Source: a virus
Taxonomy: Duplodnaviria > Heunggongvirae > Uroviricota > Caudoviricetes
Virus record (IMG/VR): IMGVR_UViG_2602041549_000012
Direction: 5' to 3' (one strand)
Length of the DNA: 34,341 bases
The notes below the pieces were generated by a model that did not search any database, had not been told where the DNA came from, and saw only the letters and a program-made list of their open reading frames with translations. A program made the translations under genes and the position numbers. Below, one piece after another: positions 4,166 to 27,295 of the stretch (position 1 is the first letter of the stretch; the number at the start of each line of letters is the position of its first letter).

Positions 4166-6431
4166 AGCCTCCGGGCGTTTTGTCCCTCCGTCAGCATTTG
4201 CCGCAGGCACCGGTGAGACGTTTACCGGTGCTTATGCATGGAACGCGCCACGCGAGGCCGTCGGGCGCGAAAGACCCCTTACACGTGACGAGATGCGTCA
4301 GGTGCAAGGTGTTTTATCCACGATTAACCGCCTGCCTTACTTTTTGCGCTCGCTGTTTACTTCACGCTATGACTACATCAGGCGCAATAAAAGCCCGGTG
4401 CACGGGTTTTATTTCCTCACATCCACTTTTCAGCGTCGTTTATGGCCGCGCATTGAGCGCGTGAATCAGCGCCATGAAATGAACACCGATGCGTCGTTGC
4501 TGTTTCTGGCAGAGCGCGACCAGTATGCGCGCCTGCCGGGAATGAATGACAAGGAGCTGAAAAAGTTTGCTGCCCGTATCTCATCGCAGCTTTTCATGAT
4601 GTATGAGGAACTCTGCGATGCCTGGGTGGATGCGCATGGCGAGAAAGAATCGCTGTTTACGGATGAGGCGCAGGCTCACCTCTATGGTCATGTTGCTGGC
4701 GCTGCACGTGCTTTCAATATTTCCCCTCTCTACTGGAAAAAATACCGTAAAGGACAGATGACCACGAGGCAGGCATATTCTGCCATTGCCCGTCTGTTTA
4801 ACGATGAGTGGTGGACTCATCAGCTTAAAGGCCAGCGTATGCGCTGGCATGAGGCGTTACTGATAGCTGTCGGGGAGGTCAATAAAGACCGTTCTCCTTA
4901 TGCCAGTAAACATGCCATTCGGGATGTGCGTGCGCGCCGCCAGGCAAATCTGGAATTTCTTAAATCGTGTGACCTTGAAAACAGGGAAACCGGCGAGCGC
5001 ATCGACCTTATCAGTAAGGTGATGGGCAGTATTTCTAATCCTGAAATTCGCCGGATGGAGCTGATGAACACCATTGCCGGTATTGAGCGTTACGCCGCCT
5101 CAGAGGGTGATGTGGGGATGTTTATCACGCTTACCGCGCCGTCAAAGTATCACCCGACACGTCAGGTTGGAAAAGGCGAAAATAAAACCGTCCAGCTTAA
5201 TCACGGCTGGAATGATGAGGCATTTAATCCAAAGGATGCGCAGCGTTATCTCTGCCGTATCTGGAGCCTGATGCGCACGGCATTCAAGGATAATGATTTA
5301 CAGGTCTACGGTTTGCGAGTCGTCGAGCCACACCACGACGGAACGCCGCACTGGCATATGATGCTTTTTTGTAATCCACGCCAGCGTAACCAGATTATCG
5401 AAATCATGCATCGCTATGCGCTCAAAGAGGATGGCGACGAAAGAGGAGCCGCGCGAAACCGTTTTCAGGCAAAACACCTTAACCGGGGCGGTGCTGCGGG
5501 ATATATCGCGAAATACATTTCAAAAAATATCGACGGCTATGCACTGGATGGTCAGCTCGATAACGATACCGGCAGACCGCTGAAAGATACTGCGGCGGCT
5601 GTTACCGCATGGGCGTCAACGTGGCGCATCCCGCAATTTAAAACGGTTGGCCTGCCGACAATGGGAGCTTACCGTGAGCTACGTAAATTGCCTCGCGGCG
5701 TCAGCATTGCTGATGAATTTGACGAACGCGTGGAGGCTGCACGCGCCGCCGCAGACAGTGGCGATTTTGCGCTGTATATCAGCGCGCAGGGCGGGGCAAA
5801 TGTCCCGCGCGATTGTCAGACTGTCAGGGTCGCCCGTAGCCCGTCGGATGACGTTAACGAATACGAGGAAGAAGTCGAGAGAGTGGTCGGCATTTACGCG
5901 CCGCATCTCGGCGCGCGTCATATTCATATCACCAGAACGACGGACTGGCGCATTGTGCCGAAAGTGCCGGTCGTTGAGCCTTTGACTTTAAAAAGCGGCA
6001 TCGCCGCGCCTCGGAGTCCTGTCAATAACTGTGGAAAGCTCACCGGTAGTGATGCTTCGTTACCGGCTCCCACACCTTCTGAGCACGCCGCCGCAGTGCT
6101 TAATCTGGTTGATGACGGTGTTATCGAATGGAATGACCAGGAGGTCGTGAGGGCGCTCAGGGGCGAATTAAAACACGACCTGAGAACACCAAACCGTCAG
6201 CAAAGAAGCGGAAGCCCGTTAAAACCGCATGAAATAGCGCCATCGGCCAGACTGACCCGGTCGGAACGAATGCAAATTACCCGTATCCGCGTTGACCTTG
6301 CTCAGAACGGTATCAGGCCGCAGCGATGGGAGCTTGAGGCGCTGGCGCGTGGGGCAACCGTAAATTATGATGGGAAAAAATTCACGTATCCGGTTGCTGA
6401 TGAGTGGCCGGGGTTCTCGTTACCCATTTGA
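4155..6431 (+). CDS. A: Replication initiator A (rolling-circle nickase)
   Basis: Large ORF at the P2 A position. Contains the HWHMMLF region, consistent with rolling-circle initiator HUH/tyrosine motifs. The track start at 4113 is TTG, so ATG 4155 (MAVKASGRF) is preferred. Confidence 0.85.
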   Translation: MAVKASGRFVPPSAFAAGTGETFTGAYAWNAPREAVGRERPLTRDEMRQVQGVLSTINRLPYFLRSLFTSRYDYIRRNKSPVHGFYFLTSTFQRRLWPRIERVNQRHEMNTDASLLFLAERDQYARLPGMNDKELKKFAARISSQLFMMYEELCDAWVDAHGEKESLFTDEAQAHLYGHVAGAARAFNISPLYWKKYRKGQMTTRQAYSAIARLFNDEWWTHQLKGQRMRWHEALLIAVGEVNKDRSPYASKHAIRDVRARRQANLEFLKSCDLENRETGERIDLISKVMGSISNPEIRRMELMNTIAGIERYAASEGDVGMFITLTAPSKYHPTRQVGKGENKTVQLNHGWNDEAFNPKDAQRYLCRIWSLMRTAFKDNDLQVYGLRVVEPHHDGTPHWHMMLFCNPRQRNQIIEIMHRYALKEDGDERGAARNRFQAKHLNRGGAAGYIAKYISKNIDGYALDGQLDNDTGRPLKDTAAAVTAWASTWRIPQFKTVGLPTMGAYRELRKLPRGVSIADEFDERVEAARAAADSGDFALYISAQGGANVPRDCQTVRVARSPSDDVNEYEEEVERVVGIYAPHLGARHIHITRTTDWRIVPKVPVVEPLTLKSGIAAPRSPVNNCGKLTGSDASLPAPTPSEHAAAVLNLVDDGVIEWNDQEVVRALRGELKHDLRTPNRQQRSGSPLKPHEIAPSARLTRSERMQITRIRVDLAQNGIRPQRWELEALARGATVNYDGKKFTYPVADEWPGFSLPI

Positions 6432-6691
6432 GTAAAAACACAACGTGATTTGATATGGCATTGAATGGCTTATGCGGAGCAGTTATGGGGCAGCAGAAGG
6501 TCAATAGCATGCTGAATTAGAAGGCTAAATGCTATTGAGTGACTAGCATGTCGGTAAGGACAGCCGTTTGATCCGGGTCATAAAAGGCCATCCATTTAGT
6601 CTAATAAAATCATTGCGGGTAACCTTATGTCGACGCATAATTCGTCTTGAGCGAAGTCTTGTCAGTCTTTCATCGTATTGATGATGGGCGC

Positions 6692-6721
6692 AAAAAAACC
6701 ACCCTGGCAGGTGGTTTTTTT
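6692..6721. terminator. Bidirectional rho-independent terminator (A7-hairpin-T7)
   Basis: aaaaaaa-CCACCctggcaGGTGG-ttttttt. The hairpin is flanked by an A-run and a T-run, so it can terminate transcripts on both strands. Confidence 0.55.
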
Positions 6722-6733
6722 GTTTGAAGCATA

Positions 6734-6847
6734 TTAAAGCATAATGCTGACATTGATATTACTGACGTTTACTGACAAACCACTCGGACTACCGTTTGGA
6801 TAGCCAAAGAGGGCCAGAACGAGAATGCAGTAATAGCATTTCTTCAT
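6734..6847 (-). CDS. Small hydrophobic peptide (37 aa), candidate type I toxin-like or membrane peptide
   Basis: ATG at 6847 is preceded by AGGAGG with 4-nt spacing. The peptide MKKCYYCILVLALFGY... has a hydrophobic N-terminus. The stop is followed immediately by the 6692-6721 terminator. Confidence 0.35.
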   Translation of the reverse strand: MKKCYYCILVLALFGYPNGSPSGLSVNVSNINVSIML

Positions 6848-7325
6848 ATTGCCTCCTGTAAGTAGAGGGCAACTTCCACCGGTATATGCGCTTCTTAGGT
6901 GGAATGACTTTTGAGCGAAGTCTTGCCCTGAAATAATGCTCTGTTTAAACGCAAAGTGATTTGGCATATCACCGAACAGAGAGCCGGAAAAACACAACAT
7001 ATAGTATGTCGTTGTTTCTAGACATACATTCTATGTTGTGTAACAAGGGCTTTGCATTAAACATGTTTGAGATTTTATTGATGTAGCTCAAAGTAAAAAA
7101 CAGAGACTACGGATGATAAGGTCTTGAAAGCAATGTAAATTTTTTAAAGTTGCCAATTGCTTAAAAATGTACAGTTGCGGTATGGCGTACTTAAAAAGCT
7201 ATGCATGCAACAAGTGAATGTTTTTGCATGCGTTGGGGATGTCCGTTCAGGCTGCGTGCGGTCAGGACTGGTGCGGATCCATAGTATCTATGCAACTGCA
7301 TTAAAACCGCCCCGTGAAGCGGGCG

Positions 7326-7344
7326 GGCGAGGCGGGGAAAGCAC
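7326..7344. other. cos: Putative cos site (19-nt cohesive end, GGCGAGGCGGGGAAAGCAC)
   Basis: Exact match to the P2 cohesive-end sequence as I recall it. Sits in a GC-rich island flanked by AT-rich DNA, between A and Q as expected for a prophage. Confidence 0.6.
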
Positions 7345-7380
7345 CGCGCGTAAGATAAACAGAAGAGCGAAGGATTATGG

Positions 7381-7409
7381 TTGAGTATTTGTGTTTTTGT
7401 ACATATGAT
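7381..7409 (+). promoter_or_regulatory. Putative sigma70 promoter for the cargo operon
   Basis: TTGAGT, 17-bp spacer, TATGAT. AAAGGAG RBS at 7440-7446, ahead of the ATG at 7451. Confidence 0.4.
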
Positions 7410-7450
7410 AAAAAGGTGTTTACGCTTAAAAACACATCAAAGGAGATGAT

Positions 7451-8752
7451 ATGGAAAATATAAAGATTGATAAGTTTCTCACTATTCAAAAAGTTGATAT
7501 TCCTCTTAAGAAAGTGAATATATTTATTGGGCCTCAGGCACAGGGGAAAAGTGTCATTGCAAAGCTAATAAAATATTTTAAAGATTACCCTATGGATATA
7601 CTACGAGCTTCAACAGAGGGTAAAACTAAAAGAGATATATTGAAGGAGCAAAAGAATAAGTTTAGTAAAATTTTCCCTCAGCAGTATTGGGCTGATGATG
7701 AGTTTTTTATTGAGTATAGTAATAAGCACTATTGGGTGCGGATTACTAATCGAAAAGATAGCAAAGGGTCATTGAAAATAACCCTTTCTGAGAATTTAAC
7801 GAAGACGATTGCTAAACTTCGTTTGATTGTACGAAAGGATTTAGATGAAAATATTGAGAATTCACTTGCAGAAAGCGTTACGAGAAGACGTAAACGCGGA
7901 ATTGAACATGAATTGCGAGTATGTCTTTCTCTAGGATTGTTTTCAGAACCAGAAACAAAGCTTGAAAGTGTTTTTTATATCCCCGCAGGGCGCTCTTTTT
8001 TTGCTAACTTGCAAAAAAATGTGTTTTCATTTTTATCCAGTAGTATAGAAATTGACTACTTTTTGACAGAGTTTGGTTCTCTGTATGAACAAACAAAAAA
8101 ATTATTTAGCCAAGATTACATGATTAGGATGCTTAGGGGGGCTGTGCCTCAACATGTTAATAAGCTTGTGGAGGAGTTGATTTGCGGAAAATATATAACA
8201 GAAAAGGGTGAGGATTTTATTCGTCATGCTGCTAAAAAGACGAATCTTAACAACTCGAGCTCAGGGCAGCAAGAAGCGTTACCAATGGCTTTAATGTTAT
8301 CCTCATGGCCGTATTTACAGTCTATGACTAGTAAGAGTTTTATTATTGAGGAGCCGGAGGCTCATCTGTTTCCTTCTGCCCAAGCAAAAGTTGTATCTTT
8401 AATAGCCTCAGCGTATAACCAAGCAGAAAGCTATTGTAGCTATACAATAACAACACATAGCCCATATATTCTAAGTGCCTTCAATAATTTGATTCAAGCA
8501 GGTAATGCATTGAAGTGTATTAAGGGCAAGAATAATGCCGATATCGAACGCTTATATAAGCTTGTTCCAGAGTCTCAAATTATTGATTTTGATGATGTGA
8601 CAGCTTATATGGTTAATGCTGGGAAAGTGACGGAAATACTGGATTCCGAACTAAATATATTAGATGCGAATGAAATAGATAGGATTTCCTCTATTTTTTC
8701 AGAGACTTTTGATGCATTGATTGATATCGAATATTCGGCTACTGTGAATTAG
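7451..8752 (+). CDS. Cargo gene 1: ABC-type (AAA_21/AAA_15-like) ATPase, 433 aa
   Basis: Walker A GPQAQGKS near the N-terminus, signature-like SSGQQ, Walker B FIIEEPEAHL, H-loop TTHSP. Strongly AT-rich compared with the phage backbone. Confidence 0.8.
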   Translation: MENIKIDKFLTIQKVDIPLKKVNIFIGPQAQGKSVIAKLIKYFKDYPMDILRASTEGKTKRDILKEQKNKFSKIFPQQYWADDEFFIEYSNKHYWVRITNRKDSKGSLKITLSENLTKTIAKLRLIVRKDLDENIENSLAESVTRRRKRGIEHELRVCLSLGLFSEPETKLESVFYIPAGRSFFANLQKNVFSFLSSSIEIDYFLTEFGSLYEQTKKLFSQDYMIRMLRGAVPQHVNKLVEELICGKYITEKGEDFIRHAAKKTNLNNSSSGQQEALPMALMLSSWPYLQSMTSKSFIIEEPEAHLFPSAQAKVVSLIASAYNQAESYCSYTITTHSPYILSAFNNLIQAGNALKCIKGKNNADIERLYKLVPESQIIDFDDVTAYMVNAGKVTEILDSELNILDANEIDRISSIFSETFDALIDIEYSATVN

Positions 8753-21833: not shown

Positions 21834-24176
21834 ATGAGCACAAAATTCAGAACCGTTATCACCACTGCCGGTGCAGCAAAGCTGGCAGCGGCAACCGCAC
21901 CGGGAGGGCGGAAGGTCAACATTACCACGATGGCCGTCGGGGATGGCGGTGGTAAATTGCCTGTCCCGGATGCCGGACAGACCGGGCTTATCCACGAAGT
22001 CTGGCGACATGCGCTGAACAAAATCAGCCAGGACAAACGAAACAGTAATTATATTATCGCAGAGCTGGTTATTCCGCCGGAGGTGGGCGGTTTCTGGATG
22101 CGTGAGCTTGGCCTGTACGATGATGCGGGAACGTTAATTGCTGTGGCGAACATGGCCGAAAGTTATAAGCCAGCTCTTGCCGAAGGCTCAGGGCGTTCGC
22201 AGACCTGCCGTATGGTCATCATCGTCAGCAGTGTGACCTCAGTGGCGCTGACCATTGACACCACAACGGTGATGGCGACGCAGGATTACGTTGATGACAA
22301 AATTGCAGAACATGAACAGTCACGACGTCACCCGGACGCCTCGCTGACCGCAAAAGGTTTTACTCAGTTAAGCAGTGCGACCAACAGCACGTCTGAAACA
22401 CTGGCTGCAACGCCAAAGGCGGTAAAGGCCGCATATGACCTTGCTAACGGGAAATATACCGCACAGGACGCCACCACAGCACGAAAAGGCCTTGTCCAGC
22501 TCAGTAGTGCCACCAACAGCACGTCTGAAACGCTCGCCGCAACACCAAAAGCGGTAAAAGCAGCATATGACCTTGCTAACGGGAAATATACCGCACAGGA
22601 CGCCACCACAGCACGAAAAGGCCTTGTCCAGCTCAGTAGTGCCACCAACAGCACGTCTGAAACGCTCGCCGCAACACCAAAAGCGGTAAAAGCAGCATAT
22701 GACCTTGCTAACGGGAAATATACCGCACAGGACGCCACCACAGCGCGAAAAGGCCTTGTTCAGCTCAGTAGCGCCACCAACAGCGATTCTGAAACGCTTG
22801 CGGCAACGCCAAAGGCGGTTAAGACAGCGTATGACCTTGCTAACGGGAAATACACTGCACAGGATGCCACCACAGCGCGAAAAGGTCTTGTCCAGCTCAG
22901 TAGCGCCACCAACAGTGATTCTGAAACGCTGGCTGCAACACCAAAAGCGGTGAAGTCTGCCTATGACAATGCTGAAAAACGTCTTCAGAAAGATCAGAAC
23001 GGTGCGGATATTCCGGGAAAGGATACCTTCACGAAAAATATCGGTGCCTGTCGTGCTTATAGCGGCGCTTTGAGCACTGAAGCCGGAAACTGGACAACCG
23101 CTCAGTTTATTGACTGGCTAGAGTCTCAGGGAGCCTTTAATCATCCTTACTGGATGTGCAAGTGTTCCTGGTCATATGGTAATAACAAAATTATTACCGA
23201 TACTGACTGTGGGACTATTCATCTTGCAGGTTGCGTGATTGAGGTTATGGGCGTTAAAGCAGCAATGACCATTCGTGTGACCACTCCGAGTACATCAAGC
23301 GGTGGTGGTACCACCAGTGCGCAATTCACGTATATCAATCACGGAGCTGATTATGCGCCGGGCTGGCGACGCGACTACAATACGAAAAATAAGCAACCGG
23401 CTTTTGCATTAGGGAAAACAGGAAATACGGTTGCAAATAATAAAGCGGTAGGATGGAACTGGGACAGTGGTGCTTATTGTGCACAGGATGGCGGCGCATC
23501 AAAAATGGTGTTGCATTTTTACACGGGTGAGGGAAGTTGTCCGGCAATGCAGTTTCTTGTGGATTATAAAAACAGGGGGATTTTTTACAGGTCGGCACGT
23601 GATGGGTATGGATTTGAGGCTGACTGGTCAGAGTTTTATACCACATCACGAAAGCCAACACCTGCGGATATTCTTGCTCTGGCATTATCAGGCGGAAGCA
23701 TGTCAGGCAGCATAAAATTTATCAATGATGCCTTCCTGATTTGGGAAAGAAACACTGACTGGGCGAAAATTGGATTTAAAAATGATTCAGATGCTGATTC
23801 TGACTCATACATGTGGTTTGAAACTGGTGATAATGGCAATGAATATTTTAAATGGCGCATCAGGTCTGGCAGCACAACAAAAGATCTGATGACGCTTAAG
23901 TCTGATGCACTACGGGTTACCGGGCAGGTGATACCATCAAATTTCAGCAATTTTGACTCCCGCTATGTCCGGGATATCCGACTTGGTGGTGCCGCCACAT
24001 ACAAACCTGCGAACAATGGCATGACATGGACACATCAGGCACCGTCCGGGTGTGTATATACCGGCATTATTGTTCAGGATACCGGCTCAAACTCTGCCGA
24101 TAACATTGGTGGCGTATATTACAGACCGGTTCAGAAATACATTAACGGGACATGGTACAACGTGGCGCAGGTATAA
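21834..24176 (+). CDS. H: Tail fiber protein H (780 aa) with internal tandem repeats and an AT-rich distal domain
   Basis: Conserved N-terminus (MSTKFRTVITTAGAAKLAAA...). Phage-fibre repeat motif SATNSTSETLAATPKAVK. Longer than P2 H as I recall it. Confidence 0.85.
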   Translation: MSTKFRTVITTAGAAKLAAATAPGGRKVNITTMAVGDGGGKLPVPDAGQTGLIHEVWRHALNKISQDKRNSNYIIAELVIPPEVGGFWMRELGLYDDAGTLIAVANMAESYKPALAEGSGRSQTCRMVIIVSSVTSVALTIDTTTVMATQDYVDDKIAEHEQSRRHPDASLTAKGFTQLSSATNSTSETLAATPKAVKAAYDLANGKYTAQDATTARKGLVQLSSATNSTSETLAATPKAVKAAYDLANGKYTAQDATTARKGLVQLSSATNSTSETLAATPKAVKAAYDLANGKYTAQDATTARKGLVQLSSATNSDSETLAATPKAVKTAYDLANGKYTAQDATTARKGLVQLSSATNSDSETLAATPKAVKSAYDNAEKRLQKDQNGADIPGKDTFTKNIGACRAYSGALSTEAGNWTTAQFIDWLESQGAFNHPYWMCKCSWSYGNNKIITDTDCGTIHLAGCVIEVMGVKAAMTIRVTTPSTSSGGGTTSAQFTYINHGADYAPGWRRDYNTKNKQPAFALGKTGNTVANNKAVGWNWDSGAYCAQDGGASKMVLHFYTGEGSCPAMQFLVDYKNRGIFYRSARDGYGFEADWSEFYTTSRKPTPADILALALSGGSMSGSIKFINDAFLIWERNTDWAKIGFKNDSDADSDSYMWFETGDNGNEYFKWRIRSGSTTKDLMTLKSDALRVTGQVIPSNFSNFDSRYVRDIRLGGAATYKPANNGMTWTHQAPSGCVYTGIIVQDTGSNSADNIGGVYYRPVQKYINGTWYNVAQV
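22353..22967 (+). repeat. Tandem 132-bp (44-aa) repeats inside H, about 4.7 copies
   Basis: Units start at 22353, 22485, 22617, 22749 and 22881 (partial). Units 2 and 3 appear identical at the DNA level. Confidence 0.85.
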
Positions 24177-24179
24177 TTT

Positions 24180-24707
24180 ATGCAGCATTTGATAAATATA
24201 ACGGCAGGTAATCCAAAAACGGTTGAACAATATCAATTGACAAAGAACTTTGATGTCGTCTGGTTTTTTACAGAAGATGGTAAGAACTGGTACGAAGAAC
24301 AAAAGTATTTTGCTGATGACACGATAAAAATAGCGTACGACAAAGATAATATCATCCGCTATGTGGAAAAGGATGTGACAGCTATCAGACCGGATGGATT
24401 AAGTGTGGTTGAAGTGGCGGATATTACTGCTAACCGACGGGCGGACATTTCAGGGAACTGGATGTTTAAGGACGGCAAAGTGATTAAACGCATTTATACG
24501 GCAGAGGAATTGCAGCAGCAGGCAGAAAATCGGAAAGCCAGACTTCTTGCAGATGCTGAATCCGTAATTTTGCCGCTGGAACGCGCTGTCAGGCTGAATA
24601 TGGCGACGGATGAAGAGCGCACACGACTGGAAGCATGGGAACGCTACAGCGTTCTGGTCAGTCGTGTGGATCCTGCAAATCCTGAATGGCCGGAAATGCC
24701 GCAATAA
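24180..24707 (+). CDS. G: Tail fiber assembly chaperone G (175 aa)
   Basis: Immediately follows H. Length and position. Confidence 0.75.
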
Positions 24708-24840
24708 GTTGTATGAGCTCTGGTGGGAGCCTACATATCTATGGCACAGAGTAAAGCCTAATCTGACAGTCCGCTCTGTGCCAAAAGCGGACTAACATAT
24801 AATTTCACATTCAATCAAGAGTCATGATGATAGCATTGGA

Positions 24841-25701
24841 TCATTGTTTTGTATTCTTTAATAACTCTAAGTCGATAACAAGTATACGTGTTGGAATCGG
24901 GGCTTTATTTGGGTACAAACGTTCTCTTTTCAAATTAAAAGCCTCGCCGCTTTTAAATAACCTAGAAATGTCATGACCTTTAAATACATAATCTAAGTTT
25001 GCATCGTTTTCGTGAATTTGATGCAACTCTATTTTTTCATTCTCGGGCACTATGACGTTTGAGTATGATAGAGAAATCACATCTGGCGGTTGTTGTGGTG
25101 TTGTATTTCTATAAATATATTTACTTCTGGTTCCTATACACTCCAGAAGACAACAAAGCGGGTATGTCGTTCTAACCTTGTGTATTGAATTGAAATTCTT
25201 CCCTCTTTTTTTATGTATTGCACTAACTACCACTTCAAGATTAGCAACAGTAATTCCCATTTTTTTTCTTGATATTGGTCTCTTACAATTCCAATACTCA
25301 TCAAGTTCAGCTTGTTTTGGGTAATTGTAAAAAGCATAGAGTGGTACTGCGTTTGTATCTTTAGCGTACTGCTGTAATATATTATGTTGTAAAATTTTAT
25401 TTTTCCCTACCTCATGCTTTAGCTTTTTATATGAATACTGGTTATGATCCATTTTTTTTGCTTGTATTGCATATCGTACCCAACCAGTTTTCCTGCTCCC
25501 AATCCACCATTCCCAATCTGTTCCTTTTGTTGACTCTTTATCTTTGGTGGTTTTCTTTATAGTCACATAACTATAATCTCGCCTAGCAATCTCTAATAAA
25601 ATTAAATCACTAATTGTTTCTTCACCTATAGATAATCCTAATTTTTTTCCATCATGAAGCAAATCCCAGACATACTCAGAAATATCAGAAAAAACACTCA
25701 T
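24841..25701 (-). CDS. AT-rich cargo protein (286 aa) at the G/FI junction, function unknown
   Basis: Minus strand between G and FI, the position of P2 Z/fun. The track start at 25704 is TTG, with an ATG at 25701. Strongly AT-rich. Possible PD-(D/E)xK-like N-terminal motifs (TDWEWWIG ... YAIQAKK). Confidence 0.65.
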   Translation of the reverse strand: MSVFSDISEYVWDLLHDGKKLGLSIGEETISDLILLEIARRDYSYVTIKKTTKDKESTKGTDWEWWIGSRKTGWVRYAIQAKKMDHNQYSYKKLKHEVGKNKILQHNILQQYAKDTNAVPLYAFYNYPKQAELDEYWNCKRPISRKKMGITVANLEVVVSAIHKKRGKNFNSIHKVRTTYPLCCLLECIGTRSKYIYRNTTPQQPPDVISLSYSNVIVPENEKIELHQIHENDANLDYVFKGHDISRLFKSGEAFNLKRERLYPNKAPIPTRILVIDLELLKNTKQ

Positions 25702-25981
25702 CAACTCAACCTATATAAATGATATATAATTCATGTCTAAATATCGTCTTTGCCACTCAAAACTTTAGGGTGATGAAAAAATATAATGAAGTTCAAAAGG
25801 AACTAAGCGTACGATATCCATAATTATACTCTTTCAGACTTTCTGGATAACCCATCTTGGGAAGAGATTCCGCAAAACGCAAACCAACGTCCGCTCCTCG
25901 CTCAAAACAGGCTGTCAGATTTGATAGCGTTTCGGCTATGTAAATAGTCAGTCGGAAAATAAGTGAGTACAAATCAGGACA

Positions 25982-26008
25982 GGCGGGCGAATTGCCCGCC
26001 TTTTCTTT
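25982..26008 (+). terminator. Rho-independent terminator upstream of FI
   Basis: GGCGGGC-gaatt-GCCCGCC followed by TTTTCTTT. Confidence 0.45.
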
Positions 26009-26104
26009 ATCTGTTGTTTCATCCACTGACCAGCCAGGTCAAATAGCGTCTCATGCACTGCCCAACAGAAAATAGTTGCACCAATTAACCACGGAGTTAA
26101 ACGG

Positions 26105-27295
26105 ATGAGTGACTATCATCACGGCGTGCAGGTGCTGGAGATTAACGACGGCACCCGCGTCATTTCCACCGTATCCACGGCCATTGTCGGCATGGTCTGC
26201 ACGGCCAGCGATGCGGATGCGGAAACCTTCCCCCTCAATAAACCTGTGCTGATTACCAATGTGCAGAGCGCAATTGCAAAGGCCGGTAAAAAAGGCACGC
26301 TGGCGGCATCGTTGCAGGCCATCGCCGACCAGTCAAAACCGGTCACCGTTGTCGTGCGCGTGGAAGACGGCACCGGCGATGACGAAGAAACGAAACTCGC
26401 GCAGACCGTTTCCAATATCATCGGCACCACCGACGAAAACGGTCAGTACACCGGACTGAAAGCCCTGCTGGCGGCGGAGTCGGTAACCGGTGTTAAACCG
26501 CGTATTCTCGGTGTGCCGGGACTGGATACCAAAGAGGTGGCTGTTGCACTGGCATCCGTCTGTCAGAAGCTGCGCGCTTTCGGATATATCAGCGCATGGG
26601 GCTGTAAGACTATTTCCGAGGTGAAAGCCTACCGCCAGAATTTCAGCCAGCGTGAGCTGATGGTCATCTGGCCGGATTTCCTCGCATGGGATACGGTCAG
26701 CAGCACCACCGCCACCGCGTATGCCACCGCCCGTGCGTTGGGTCTGCGCGCTAAAATCGACCAGGAGCAGGGCTGGCATAAAACGCTGTCCAATGTCGGG
26801 GTAAACGGTGTTACCGGCATCAGCGCCTCTGTATTCTGGGATTTGCAGGAGTCCGGCACCGATGCTGACCTGTTGAACGAGTCAGGTGTCACAACGCTGA
26901 TTCGCCGTGACGGTTTCCGCTTCTGGGGTAACCGTACCTGCTCTGATGACCCACTGTTCCTCTTTGAAAACTACACCCGCACCGCGCAGGTGCTGGCCGA
27001 CACGATGGCTGAGGCGCACATGTGGGCGGTGGATAAGCCCATCACCGCAACGCTGATTCGCGACATCGTTGACGGCATCAATGCCAAATTCCGTGAGCTG
27101 AAAACAAACGGCTATATCGTGGATGCGACCTGCTGGTTCAGCGAAGAATCCAACGATGCGGAAACCCTCAAGGCCGGAAAACTGTATATCGACTATGACT
27201 ATACCCCGGTGCCTCCTCTCGAAAACCTGACCCTGCGCCAGCGTATTACTGATAAATATCTGGCAAATCTGGTCACCTCGGTTAACAGCAATTAA
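26105..27295 (+). CDS. FI: Tail sheath protein FI (396 aa)
   Basis: Synteny and length. Confidence 0.9.
   Translation: MSDYHHGVQVLEINDGTRVISTVSTAIVGMVCTASDADAETFPLNKPVLITNVQSAIAKAGKKGTLAASLQAIADQSKPVTVVVRVEDGTGDDEETKLAQTVSNIIGTTDENGQYTGLKALLAAESVTGVKPRILGVPGLDTKEVAVALASVCQKLRAFGYISAWGCKTISEVKAYRQNFSQRELMVIWPDFLAWDTVSSTTATAYATARALGLRAKIDQEQGWHKTLSNVGVNGVTGISASVFWDLQESGTDADLLNESGVTTLIRRDGFRFWGNRTCSDDPLFLFENYTRTAQVLADTMAEAHMWAVDKPITATLIRDIVDGINAKFRELKTNGYIVDATCWFSEESNDAETLKAGKLYIDYDYTPVPPLENLTLRQRITDKYLANLVTSVNSN

Follow-up and report, generated by a model that had tools for sequence, protein, structure and literature searches.

A probable one-unit tandem duplication in the tail fibre gene of a P2-like Escherichia coli prophage with a patchwork distal end

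Introduction

In phage P2 (NC_001895), the tail fibre gene H and the assembly gene G lie in the order V-W-J-I-H-G, followed by a cargo locus and FI, and gpH combines a PF12571 domain with PF03406 repeats. Reportedly, the distal parts of such fibres are exchanged horizontally among P2, Mu, P1 and lambda, as described from Haggard-Ljungquist et al. 1992 onward. For Mu, a structure is available for the tail fibre S' of the G(-) form (PDB 8JU3; Mori et al. 2024, as cited in PMC11915804). The structure and role of the PF03406 repeat in Stf-type fibres are described as little known (PMC3368898).

Both tail-fibre mosaicism and the PF03406 repeats are established, and the H protein analysed here is already public and annotated as a tail fibre. 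A literature search returned no paper on copy-number variation of the PF03406 repeat in P2-like H genes.

Results

H and G form a P2-like tail fibre locus

The window, meaning the whole stretch of 34,341 nucleotides that was analysed, shows the gene order V-W-J-I-H-G-(cargo)-FI and the PF12571 + PF03406 fibre architecture, as in P2. The following features make up the locus up to the end of the repeats, with the assembly gene.

21834..24176, + strand: gene H, tail fibre protein of 780 aa (open reading frame; WP_023486646.1, E. coli CE516; PHROG tail fibre families)
21834..22340, + strand: N-terminal domain of H, aa 1-169 (PF12571 at aa 1-151, E 4.4e-58), conserved P2 backbone
22341..23000, + strand: aa 170-389, five PF03406 repeats ("phage tail fibre repeats") of 44 aa each (hmmscan, five stretches; E 1.1e-100)
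24180..24707, + strand: gene G, tail fibre assembly protein of 175 aa (PF02413, E 7.9e-35; phrog_136)

Judged from their sequences, H and G are the ordinary tail fibre and assembly chaperone of a P2-like (Peduovirus) prophage of E. coli CE516. The gene identities proposed in the preliminary description are borne out by a PF12571 N-terminal domain and PF03406 repeats in H and by Caudo_TAP (PF02413) in G. Pfam matches on H comprise PF12571, five copies of PF03406, gp37_C and Gp34_trimer, and the features of a P2 gpH-type protein are present: PF12571, PF03406 ahead of a variable C-terminal part, the operon position, and a Caudo_TAP gene next to it. A further match to TPR_20 (24.8 bits, cut-off 25) was rejected as false, being driven by the repeats.

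The N-terminal domain is 96% identical to P2 H in nucleotides and 95% in amino acids, and the 95% protein identity holds for the N-terminal 251 aa (P2 H aa 1-251). By homology, aa 1-169 probably form the part that attaches to the baseplate, and the fibre is predicted to be a baseplate-attached trimer that needs G for folding. The exact G protein sequence occurs on 240 contigs. The sole open reading frame between G and FI encodes a 286-aa DUF6615 protein, which gave zero matches in PADLOC, NCBIfam and PHROGs.

The array contains five complete PF03406 repeats

The tandem array of 132 bp (44 aa) seen in H at first inspection was recovered by Tandem Repeats Finder (22374-22951, period 132, 4.4 copies, 92% matches, score 918) and by a repeat finder, which placed copies at an exact 132-nt spacing from 22352. 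An HMM built from the units matches H at aa 170-213, 214-257, 258-301, 302-345 and 346-389. In this Pfam register the first repeat is a diverged unit (SLTAKGFTQL...), and the last runs into a Mu S-like junction (...SAYDNAEKRLQKDQN).

The count depends on the register. When units are taken to begin at SSATNS..., four are full (starts 22371, 22503, 22635 and 22767), and of the fifth, starting at 22899, only about the first 69 nt are kept. The 4.7 copies counted at first therefore become about 4.5 in that register, but five complete repeats in the Pfam register. Units 1-3 of the SSATNS... register encode the same peptide despite 9-11 nt differences, all of which are thus synonymous.

The preliminary description also held that at least two units are identical in DNA. 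In the register it quoted this is not so, the closest pair (units 2 and 3) differing at 2/132 nt, but in a shifted register it holds. At offset 132, exact identity extends for up to 182 nt (22431-22612 identical to 22563-22744), which means that one complete 132-nt unit is present as a perfect duplicate. Two features follow from the comparison of units.

22431..22744, + strand: perfect period-132 stretch of 314 nt (22431-22612 = 22563-22744)
22503..22634, + strand: extra 132-bp unit, from unit comparison; any register within 22431-22744 is equivalent

The fifth repeat is probably one exact copy added to a four-repeat allele

The extra unit is an exact chimera. It is identical to the next unit over its first 60 nt and to the previous one over its 3' part, where the diagnostic positions 110 and 125 lie. 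Three near-isogenic prophages (L086, L089 and L090) carry an H of 736 aa with four repeats; their 537 nt 5' of the array and the 1,278 nt that run from the last unit up to the stop codon match the window with 0-1 mismatch, and their repeat units equal units 1, 3 and 4 of the window plus the partial unit. The near-isogenic prophages comprise this L086 type, with 15 similar places, and an L087 type, which has two repeats. Relative to this common allele, H differs solely by one exact, in-frame 132-bp tandem duplication. Once 22503-22634 is taken out, the comparison with L086 shows 2 differences over 8,861 nt (27424 and 29669), both of them lying outside H and G. The insertion is thus exactly one unit long, in frame and with a chimeric junction unit, and a parent without it is known. 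The recent expansion proposed earlier is upheld to this extent: a four-repeat parent allele exists, and H and G differ from it by the 132-bp unit only.

An exact chimera beside a near-identical four-repeat allele implies either a single, very recent unequal crossover or slippage, or a loop error in the assembly. We consider the former probable: the fifth repeat most likely represents a single 132-bp tandem duplication in the H gene of a four-repeat P2-like prophage with a patchwork distal end.

The alternative is that the CE516 prophage in truth has the common four-repeat H and that the assembler looped twice via the 50-nt sequence common to units 1 and 2, which we regard as rather unlikely. 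The extra unit matches its neighbours perfectly, with zero private mutations, and outside it the 8.9-kb region is essentially the same as in four-repeat prophages from many assemblies. A de Bruijn assembler with k <=50 could make a perfect extra pass through the 50-nt-repeat loop, and many array proteins are recorded as "partial" where a contig ends, showing that these arrays are difficult to assemble. The five-repeat CE516 allele is a singleton in the contig index, on one scaffold of a draft assembly. It was found in none of 5,426 complete E. coli genomes, where the duplication is matched at 95.5% at best, and 120/120 best protein matches are 735-736 aa long. UniRef100 merges fragments too, and the UniRef entry "n=7" for the 780-aa protein was discounted as independent support, as the contig index gives one contig.

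Against an assembly error, tandem repeats are collapsed by short-read assemblers more often than they are expanded. At k >50, or with reads longer than ~180 nt, the four-repeat allele offers no loop to over-traverse. Genuine one-unit differences are also common in this array: differences between 3 and 4 repeats are present in complete genomes and in isolated phages, and other five-repeat H alleles exist on contigs of ~5 Mb. Long exact runs at offset 132 (107-197 nt) are likewise found in other alleles.

Repeat number varies among relatives

Copy number varies among related prophages, as the preliminary description anticipated. HMM counts in 76 close relatives from IMG/VR range from 2 to 5, with 2 repeats at 9 loci, 3 at 1, 4 at 53 and 5 at 13. 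Most relatives thus have four; P2 has 2, and fiAA91-ss and strain RX24 have 3. Higher numbers occur further afield: 6 in more distant H proteins and as many as 9 in other fibre proteins of E. coli. One-unit differences occur within four distal types. The word "expanded" therefore suits the window array when P2 with its 2 repeats is the reference, but the array is just one above the commonest number (4) and lies inside the range seen elsewhere.

It is possible, though unlikely in our judgement, that repeat number is an adaptive tuning knob, a host-range contingency locus through which fibre reach is fitted to O-antigen or capsule thickness. The recurrence of one-unit gain or loss in several distal types would fit such a role, as would the strict conservation of the units in protein sequence with the reading frame kept, and the exact runs in several alleles suggest frequent recombination. 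The sharp peak at 4 (53/76), however, equally fits neutral jitter around a preferred length.

The opposite order, with five repeats first and the common four-repeat form produced by loss of one unit, is highly improbable. Unequal crossover is reversible and the window minus 132 bp is exactly the 736-aa allele, so that sequence alone leaves the direction unset. Against this order, the four-repeat form is common and has diversified (223 contigs carry just one of its variants), and related prophages that differ at other sites have it too. The five-repeat form is a singleton, and its extra unit is free of private changes.

In the AlphaFold2 monomer model of aa 160-400 (24-sequence alignment), each unit is strand-strand-helix, at a pLDDT of 39.6 that is too low for fold comparison; a low value is expected because the monomer is taken from an intertwined trimer. 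A sequence search of the PDB with the repeat region found no multi-repeat shaft structure, solely the single repeat of Mu S and S'. Each extra 44-aa unit may lengthen the predicted trimeric shaft.

The distal end is a mosaic of separately assorting pieces

Beyond the repeats, H divides into three further segments.

23001..23678, + strand: middle domain, aa 390-615 (HMMER match from aa 377), Mu S'/P7 S-like
23679..23933, + strand: segment aa 616-700 (blastp 69% to P2 H; PF21446, Gp34_trimer-type; PDB 5yvq domain 617-700)
23934..24176, + strand: C-terminal tip, aa 701-780 (PDB 5yvq domain 696-779), diverged, colinear with the C-termini of P2 H and Mu S

In nucleotides, H is 96% identical to P2 H up to 22558, then has no match, and then resumes at 76-82%. 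As the preliminary description supposed, the distal part is not colinear with P2 at an identity like that of the N-terminus. The mosaic end that it described is also present and consists of a Mu S'-like middle domain followed by a P2/Mu S-like segment and tip.

The middle domain represents a variable fibre part homologous to Sv/Sv': aa 377-615 match residues 176-416 of the PDB 8ju3 chain (E 8e-140), and tblastn gives 75% identity to Mu Sv' and P7 Sv and 100% to fiAA91-ss. No P2 match to it was found by blastn or blastp. The segment aa 616-700 corresponds to aa 391-471 of P2 H and to aa 184-267 of Mu S, and the tip is 48% identical to P2 H 592-669 in amino acids. The conserved repeat sequence stops where the variable distal sequence starts.

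A single swapped-in module of distal H plus G, as first proposed, does not describe this arrangement, in which at least three pieces have different affinities. Nor is G a foreign gene brought in with such a module; it is a colinear allele of P2 G, with 75% amino acid identity from end to end and near identity in the final ~55 aa. Across relatives, the tip type co-varies with the G type and the middle domain assorts independently. On this evidence from sequence comparison, independently assorting sub-modules (the middle domain; the tip with G) are a better description of the distal end than one host-range cassette.

Base composition drops along the same region. GC is 0.58 in V-I and 0.55 in the N-terminal part of H (21834..22340: 0.554). 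The three distal segments of H have, in order, 0.47 (0.472), 0.42 (0.420) and 0.49, and codons 1-100 of G have 0.40. The AT-richness reported for distal H and G is thus real for distal H and the first two thirds of G, but not for the end of G, whose last 228 nt return to 0.51. It is no evidence of a swap, recent or otherwise, in the CE516 prophage, because the distal H and G of P2 itself show a GC drop of the same kind.

A Mu-type inverted second fibre/chaperone pair and large inverted repeats round H-G were looked for and not found; 22900-26200 contains a single inverted repeat, 33 nt long and 76% complementary, which flanks the DUF6615 open reading frame. Membership in the invertible-segment fibre systems of Mu, P1 and P7 was ruled out, as neither an inverted gene pair nor crossover sites nor an adjacent invertase was found.

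Discussion

The preferred reading, a single duplication, would have taken the following course. Four repeats would be old; their differences are synonymous or limited to 1-2 residues, and all four are present in the widespread 736-aa allele. The fifth would then have arisen from that allele through one in-frame 132-bp tandem duplication, either by unequal homologous recombination or by replication slippage. The exchange point would lie inside the 50-nt stretch common to units 1 and 2 (22431-22480 / 22563-22612), leaving a junction unit that is exactly chimeric of its neighbours and everything else unaltered.

The PF03406 repeats may also supply homology through which P2-, Mu-, P1/P7- and lambda-type fibres exchange distal cassettes, and the distal pieces presumably set receptor specificity. 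It is tempting to go further and regard the array as a fast-changing, recombination-homogenised length module that tunes reach to the surface layer of the host and serves as a landing pad for distal cassettes, with the CE516 allele as a fresh step; we consider this broader picture speculative and improbable. On the landing-pad reading, the tandem presence in H of pieces related to both alternative Mu fibres, S' then S, would be a result of such exchange.

The finding itself is textbook tail-fibre biology and matters little beyond bookkeeping. With the parent allele identified, the pair offers a clean natural one-step repeat gain that can be used for tests of fibre length and adsorption. Repeat counts from draft assemblies should be treated cautiously in such genes.

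P2 H is among the nearest known systems. It has 2 repeats to the 5 of the window H, and no counterpart of aa 384-614. Conversely, much of P2 H aa 252-591 is without a counterpart in the window, where only aa 391-471 align, and the distal segments that the two proteins share are only 48-69% identical.

The last repeat of the window H and the junction motif NGADIPxKxxF both have matches in the constant part of Mu S. A single PF03406 repeat is present in Mu S, against five in the window H, and in Mu S' the domain is followed directly by the tip, whereas the window H has an extra P2/Mu S-like segment of ~85 aa in between.

Lambda Stf and the side tail fibres of E. coli prophages contain repeats of the same PF03406 family. 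In many fibre proteins of E. coli prophages these form arrays that differ in length, with up to 9 units among the proteins retrieved. Unlike the window H, Stf-type fibres carry different N-terminal domains, PfN among them, and in some cases collagen segments.

In T4 gp34 and gp12, repeats of ~33-47 aa have a conserved Gly at the beginning of a beta-strand and a Ser/Thr-Pro at the beginning of the helix that forms the central bundle (PMC5537660). The H unit shows this motif order as KG-LVQL followed by T-P-KAVKAAYD; this is a resemblance only, with no detectable sequence match between the H repeats and the gp34/gp12 chains in the PDB. In crAss-like phages, fibre variants reportedly arise via duplication or deletion of BACON domain repeats (PMC6949934). 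These repeats have a different fold and belong to a different phage group, but they likewise change in copy number, in frame, in a host-interaction protein.

Tail fibre genes and repeat array

The E. coli CE516 draft assembly GCA_000496995.1 carries the prophage, which is P2-like (Peduovirus), on scaffold KI544128.1. As in P2, the genes run V-W-J-I-H-G, followed by a variable locus and the sheath gene FI. H and G are a known type of gene in a known role:

21834-24176, tail fibre gene H, 780 aa; PF12571 N-terminal domain (E 4.4e-58) and five PF03406 'phage tail fibre repeats' (E 1.1e-100)
24180-24707, gene G, 175 aa; Caudo_TAP tail fibre assembly protein (E 7.9e-35)

The distal part of H has gp37_C and Gp34_trimer Pfam matches, weaker than those to PF12571 and PF03406. 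The PHROGs assignments of both genes are concordant.

The 132-nt periodicity in H is far above chance level. Tandem Repeats Finder places the array at 22374-22951 (period 132, 4.4 copies, 92% matches, score 918). Read from the SSATNS start, it comprises four full 44-aa units and a fifth with ~23 residues remaining, while the Pfam register divides the same stretch into five complete repeats (aa 170-389), the first of which is a diverged copy (SLTAKGFTQL...). In the SSATNS register, units 1-3 encode the same peptide despite 9-11 synonymous site differences, and unit 4 differs at 17-18 sites with two residue changes, indicating that the array is for the most part old and maintained by purifying selection. 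A difference of 2 sites separates units 2 and 3, so the two units reported as identical at the DNA level in the preliminary description do not form an identical pair in this, its own register. The claim does hold in a shifted one: 22431-22612 equals 22563-22744 exactly, and this 182-nt run at offset 132 means that one 132-nt unit is perfectly duplicated. Two other ORFs within the array, of 125 aa (22364-22741, minus strand) and 84 aa (22699-22953, plus strand, other frame), translate into internally repeated sequence. Their frames stay open solely because the 132-bp period repeats a stop-free frame, and nothing marks them as genes.

Origin of the additional unit

Unit 2 (22503-22634) is identical to unit 3 over its first 60 nt and to unit 1 at both 3' diagnostic sites (positions 110 and 125). 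Such a pattern is the signature of an unequal exchange, here involving the first two units of a four-repeat parent. Near-isogenic relatives were retrieved via an exact-sequence match to the neighbouring DUF6615 protein. Three of these prophages (L086, L089 and L090) encode a 736-aa H. Ahead of the array (537 nt), and from the last unit as far as the stop codon (1,278 nt), they show 0-1 mismatch to the window, and their units are window units 1, 3 and 4 plus the partial unit. A four-repeat parent allele of the window H thus exists. When 22503-22634 is removed, 2 of 8,861 nt (27424 and 29669) distinguish the window from L086, both in the tube and tape-measure genes that follow the sheath gene; the change amounts to a single event, the background being otherwise unaltered. 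Gain of the fifth unit is more likely than loss, since the four-repeat allele is widespread and diversified while the five-repeat allele is a singleton without private change.

That rarity also bears on whether the unit is real. The 780-aa H occurs on one contig in the collection, as a one-member cluster, its best 120 protein matches are all of 735-736 aa with four repeats, and the duplication is absent from 5,426 complete E. coli genomes (best match 95.5%). A short-k assembler could traverse twice a loop closed by a 50-nt shared stretch. However, assemblers collapse tandem repeats more often than they expand them, and one-unit differences are clearly real elsewhere in the same array. We favour a genuine gain of the unit and consider an assembly artefact less likely, though far from improbable.

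Copy number in related fibres

As the preliminary description supposed, copy number varies across related prophages. P2 has two repeats, fiAA91-ss and E. coli RX24 have three, and most relatives sharing the distal end of the window have four. A complete H is present in 76 of the 80 IMG/VR loci with the most similar N-terminal domains, with two repeats in 9 loci, three in 1, four in 53 and five in 13. One-unit differences are found inside four distal types. The near-isogenic locus L087 (GCA_024385325.1), with a DUF6615 protein identical to that of the window and ~98% identity over ~7 kb downstream of the array, encodes a 648-aa H (locus 5526-7472), two units shorter than the 736-aa form; both loss and gain have therefore occurred in this lineage. 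Several other H alleles carry exact offset-132 runs of 107-197 nt, including one of 197 nt (L064; four repeats, 736 aa) and one of 140 nt (L009; five repeats, 793 aa), both IMG/VR loci. Recombination in the array is therefore continuing, and the runs suggest recurrent homogenisation or unequal exchange, in which the window is not alone.

The count is 5 or 6 in less closely related H proteins of the PF12571 type, some of them on contigs of ~5 Mb, and 6-9 in many tail fibre proteins of E. coli prophages whose N-terminal domains are of other kinds (P0137-P0256), the maximum being 9. P0137, for example, has 571 aa and 8 repeats of two alternating unit types, on a 5.2-Mb contig. Five repeats are thus high among close P2 relatives, yet ordinary overall. 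A large share of the P0137-P0256 proteins are 'partial' at contig ends, indicating that assemblies often break in PF03406 arrays.

Mosaic structure of the distal end

At the nucleotide level, the window is 96% identical to P2 over 21834-22558, beyond which only 23749-23912 (82%) and 24122-24707 (76%) match. P2 H is 95% identical to window H over aa 1-251, and its residues 391-471 and 592-669 correspond to window aa 615-695 (69%) and 695-780 (48%); the two G proteins share 75% identity from end to end. P2 has no counterpart of residues 377-615. They match the Mu S' fibre of the solved structure 8ju3 (chain residues 176-416, E 8e-140; Mori et al. 2024, as cited in PMC11915804), and their identity is 75% with both Mu Sv' and P7 Sv and 100% with fiAA91-ss H. 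H therefore reads as a Mu S'-like domain, then a segment of P2/Mu S-like type at aa 616-700, and finally a tip. In Mu, inversion of the G segment switches between the S/U and S'/U' fibre sets (PMC11915804); no invertible segment is present around H and G of the window.

An allele of E. coli strain 50579417 matches 22484-23376 (90%) and 23916-24707 (96%), but does not share the stretch between. Across 72 H/G pairs (70 IMG/VR loci, the window and P2), the type of G co-varies with that of the last 90 H residues, while the middle domain is joined to differing tips. The unit of exchange is accordingly smaller than the single swapped module of distal H plus G proposed initially.

The GC content is 0.58 in V-I, 0.55 in the N-terminal part of H, 0.53 in the repeats and, across the three distal segments of H, 0.47, 0.42 and 0.49. 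In G, it is 0.40 for codons 1-100 and 0.51 for the remainder, so that the AT-richness noted for distal H and G extends to only part of the latter. P2 has the same profile, with 0.48 in distal H, 0.38 over the first 300 nt of G and 0.51 over its last 228 nt, making AT-richness a general property of the distal cassette pool and not the mark of a recent swap. The preliminary description was sound in observation and right in part in interpretation.

The locus between G and FI

A 286-aa ORF (24841-25701, minus strand, GC 0.33) with a DUF6615 domain (E 2.1e-16) lies between G and FI, where P2 carries Z/fun, a known accessory and defence hotspot (PMC13586616). PADLOC, NCBIfam and PHROGs gave no match to the ORF, and DUF6615 was mentioned in no paper found by the literature search. 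The collection index lists the same protein, without differences, in 241 blocks, and in 6 of 6 loci examined its gene occupies the same position of a P2-like prophage. We regard the ORF as an uncharacterised candidate for a cargo or defence gene. A 33-nt inverted repeat (24760-24792/25889-25921, 76% complementary) flanks the gene, and immediately before the FI promoter region is a strong terminator-like hairpin (25981-26001, plus strand; 9 pairs, 7 of them G-C, then a T run). These elements may be borders of the cargo hotspot.

Proposed architecture of the fibre

By homology, the N-terminal domain would dock on the baseplate, the repeats would form part of a trimeric shaft, the distal pieces would determine receptor specificity and G would assist folding of the tip. 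The extra unit would then lengthen the fibre. In each repeat, a Gly precedes a strand (KGLVQL) and a Thr-Pro precedes a helix (TPKAVKAAYD), and the AlphaFold monomer model gives strand-strand-helix per unit, though at a pLDDT of 39.6. T4 gp34 and gp12 contain mixed alpha-beta fibrous repeats with the same order of elements (PMC5537660), a resemblance only.
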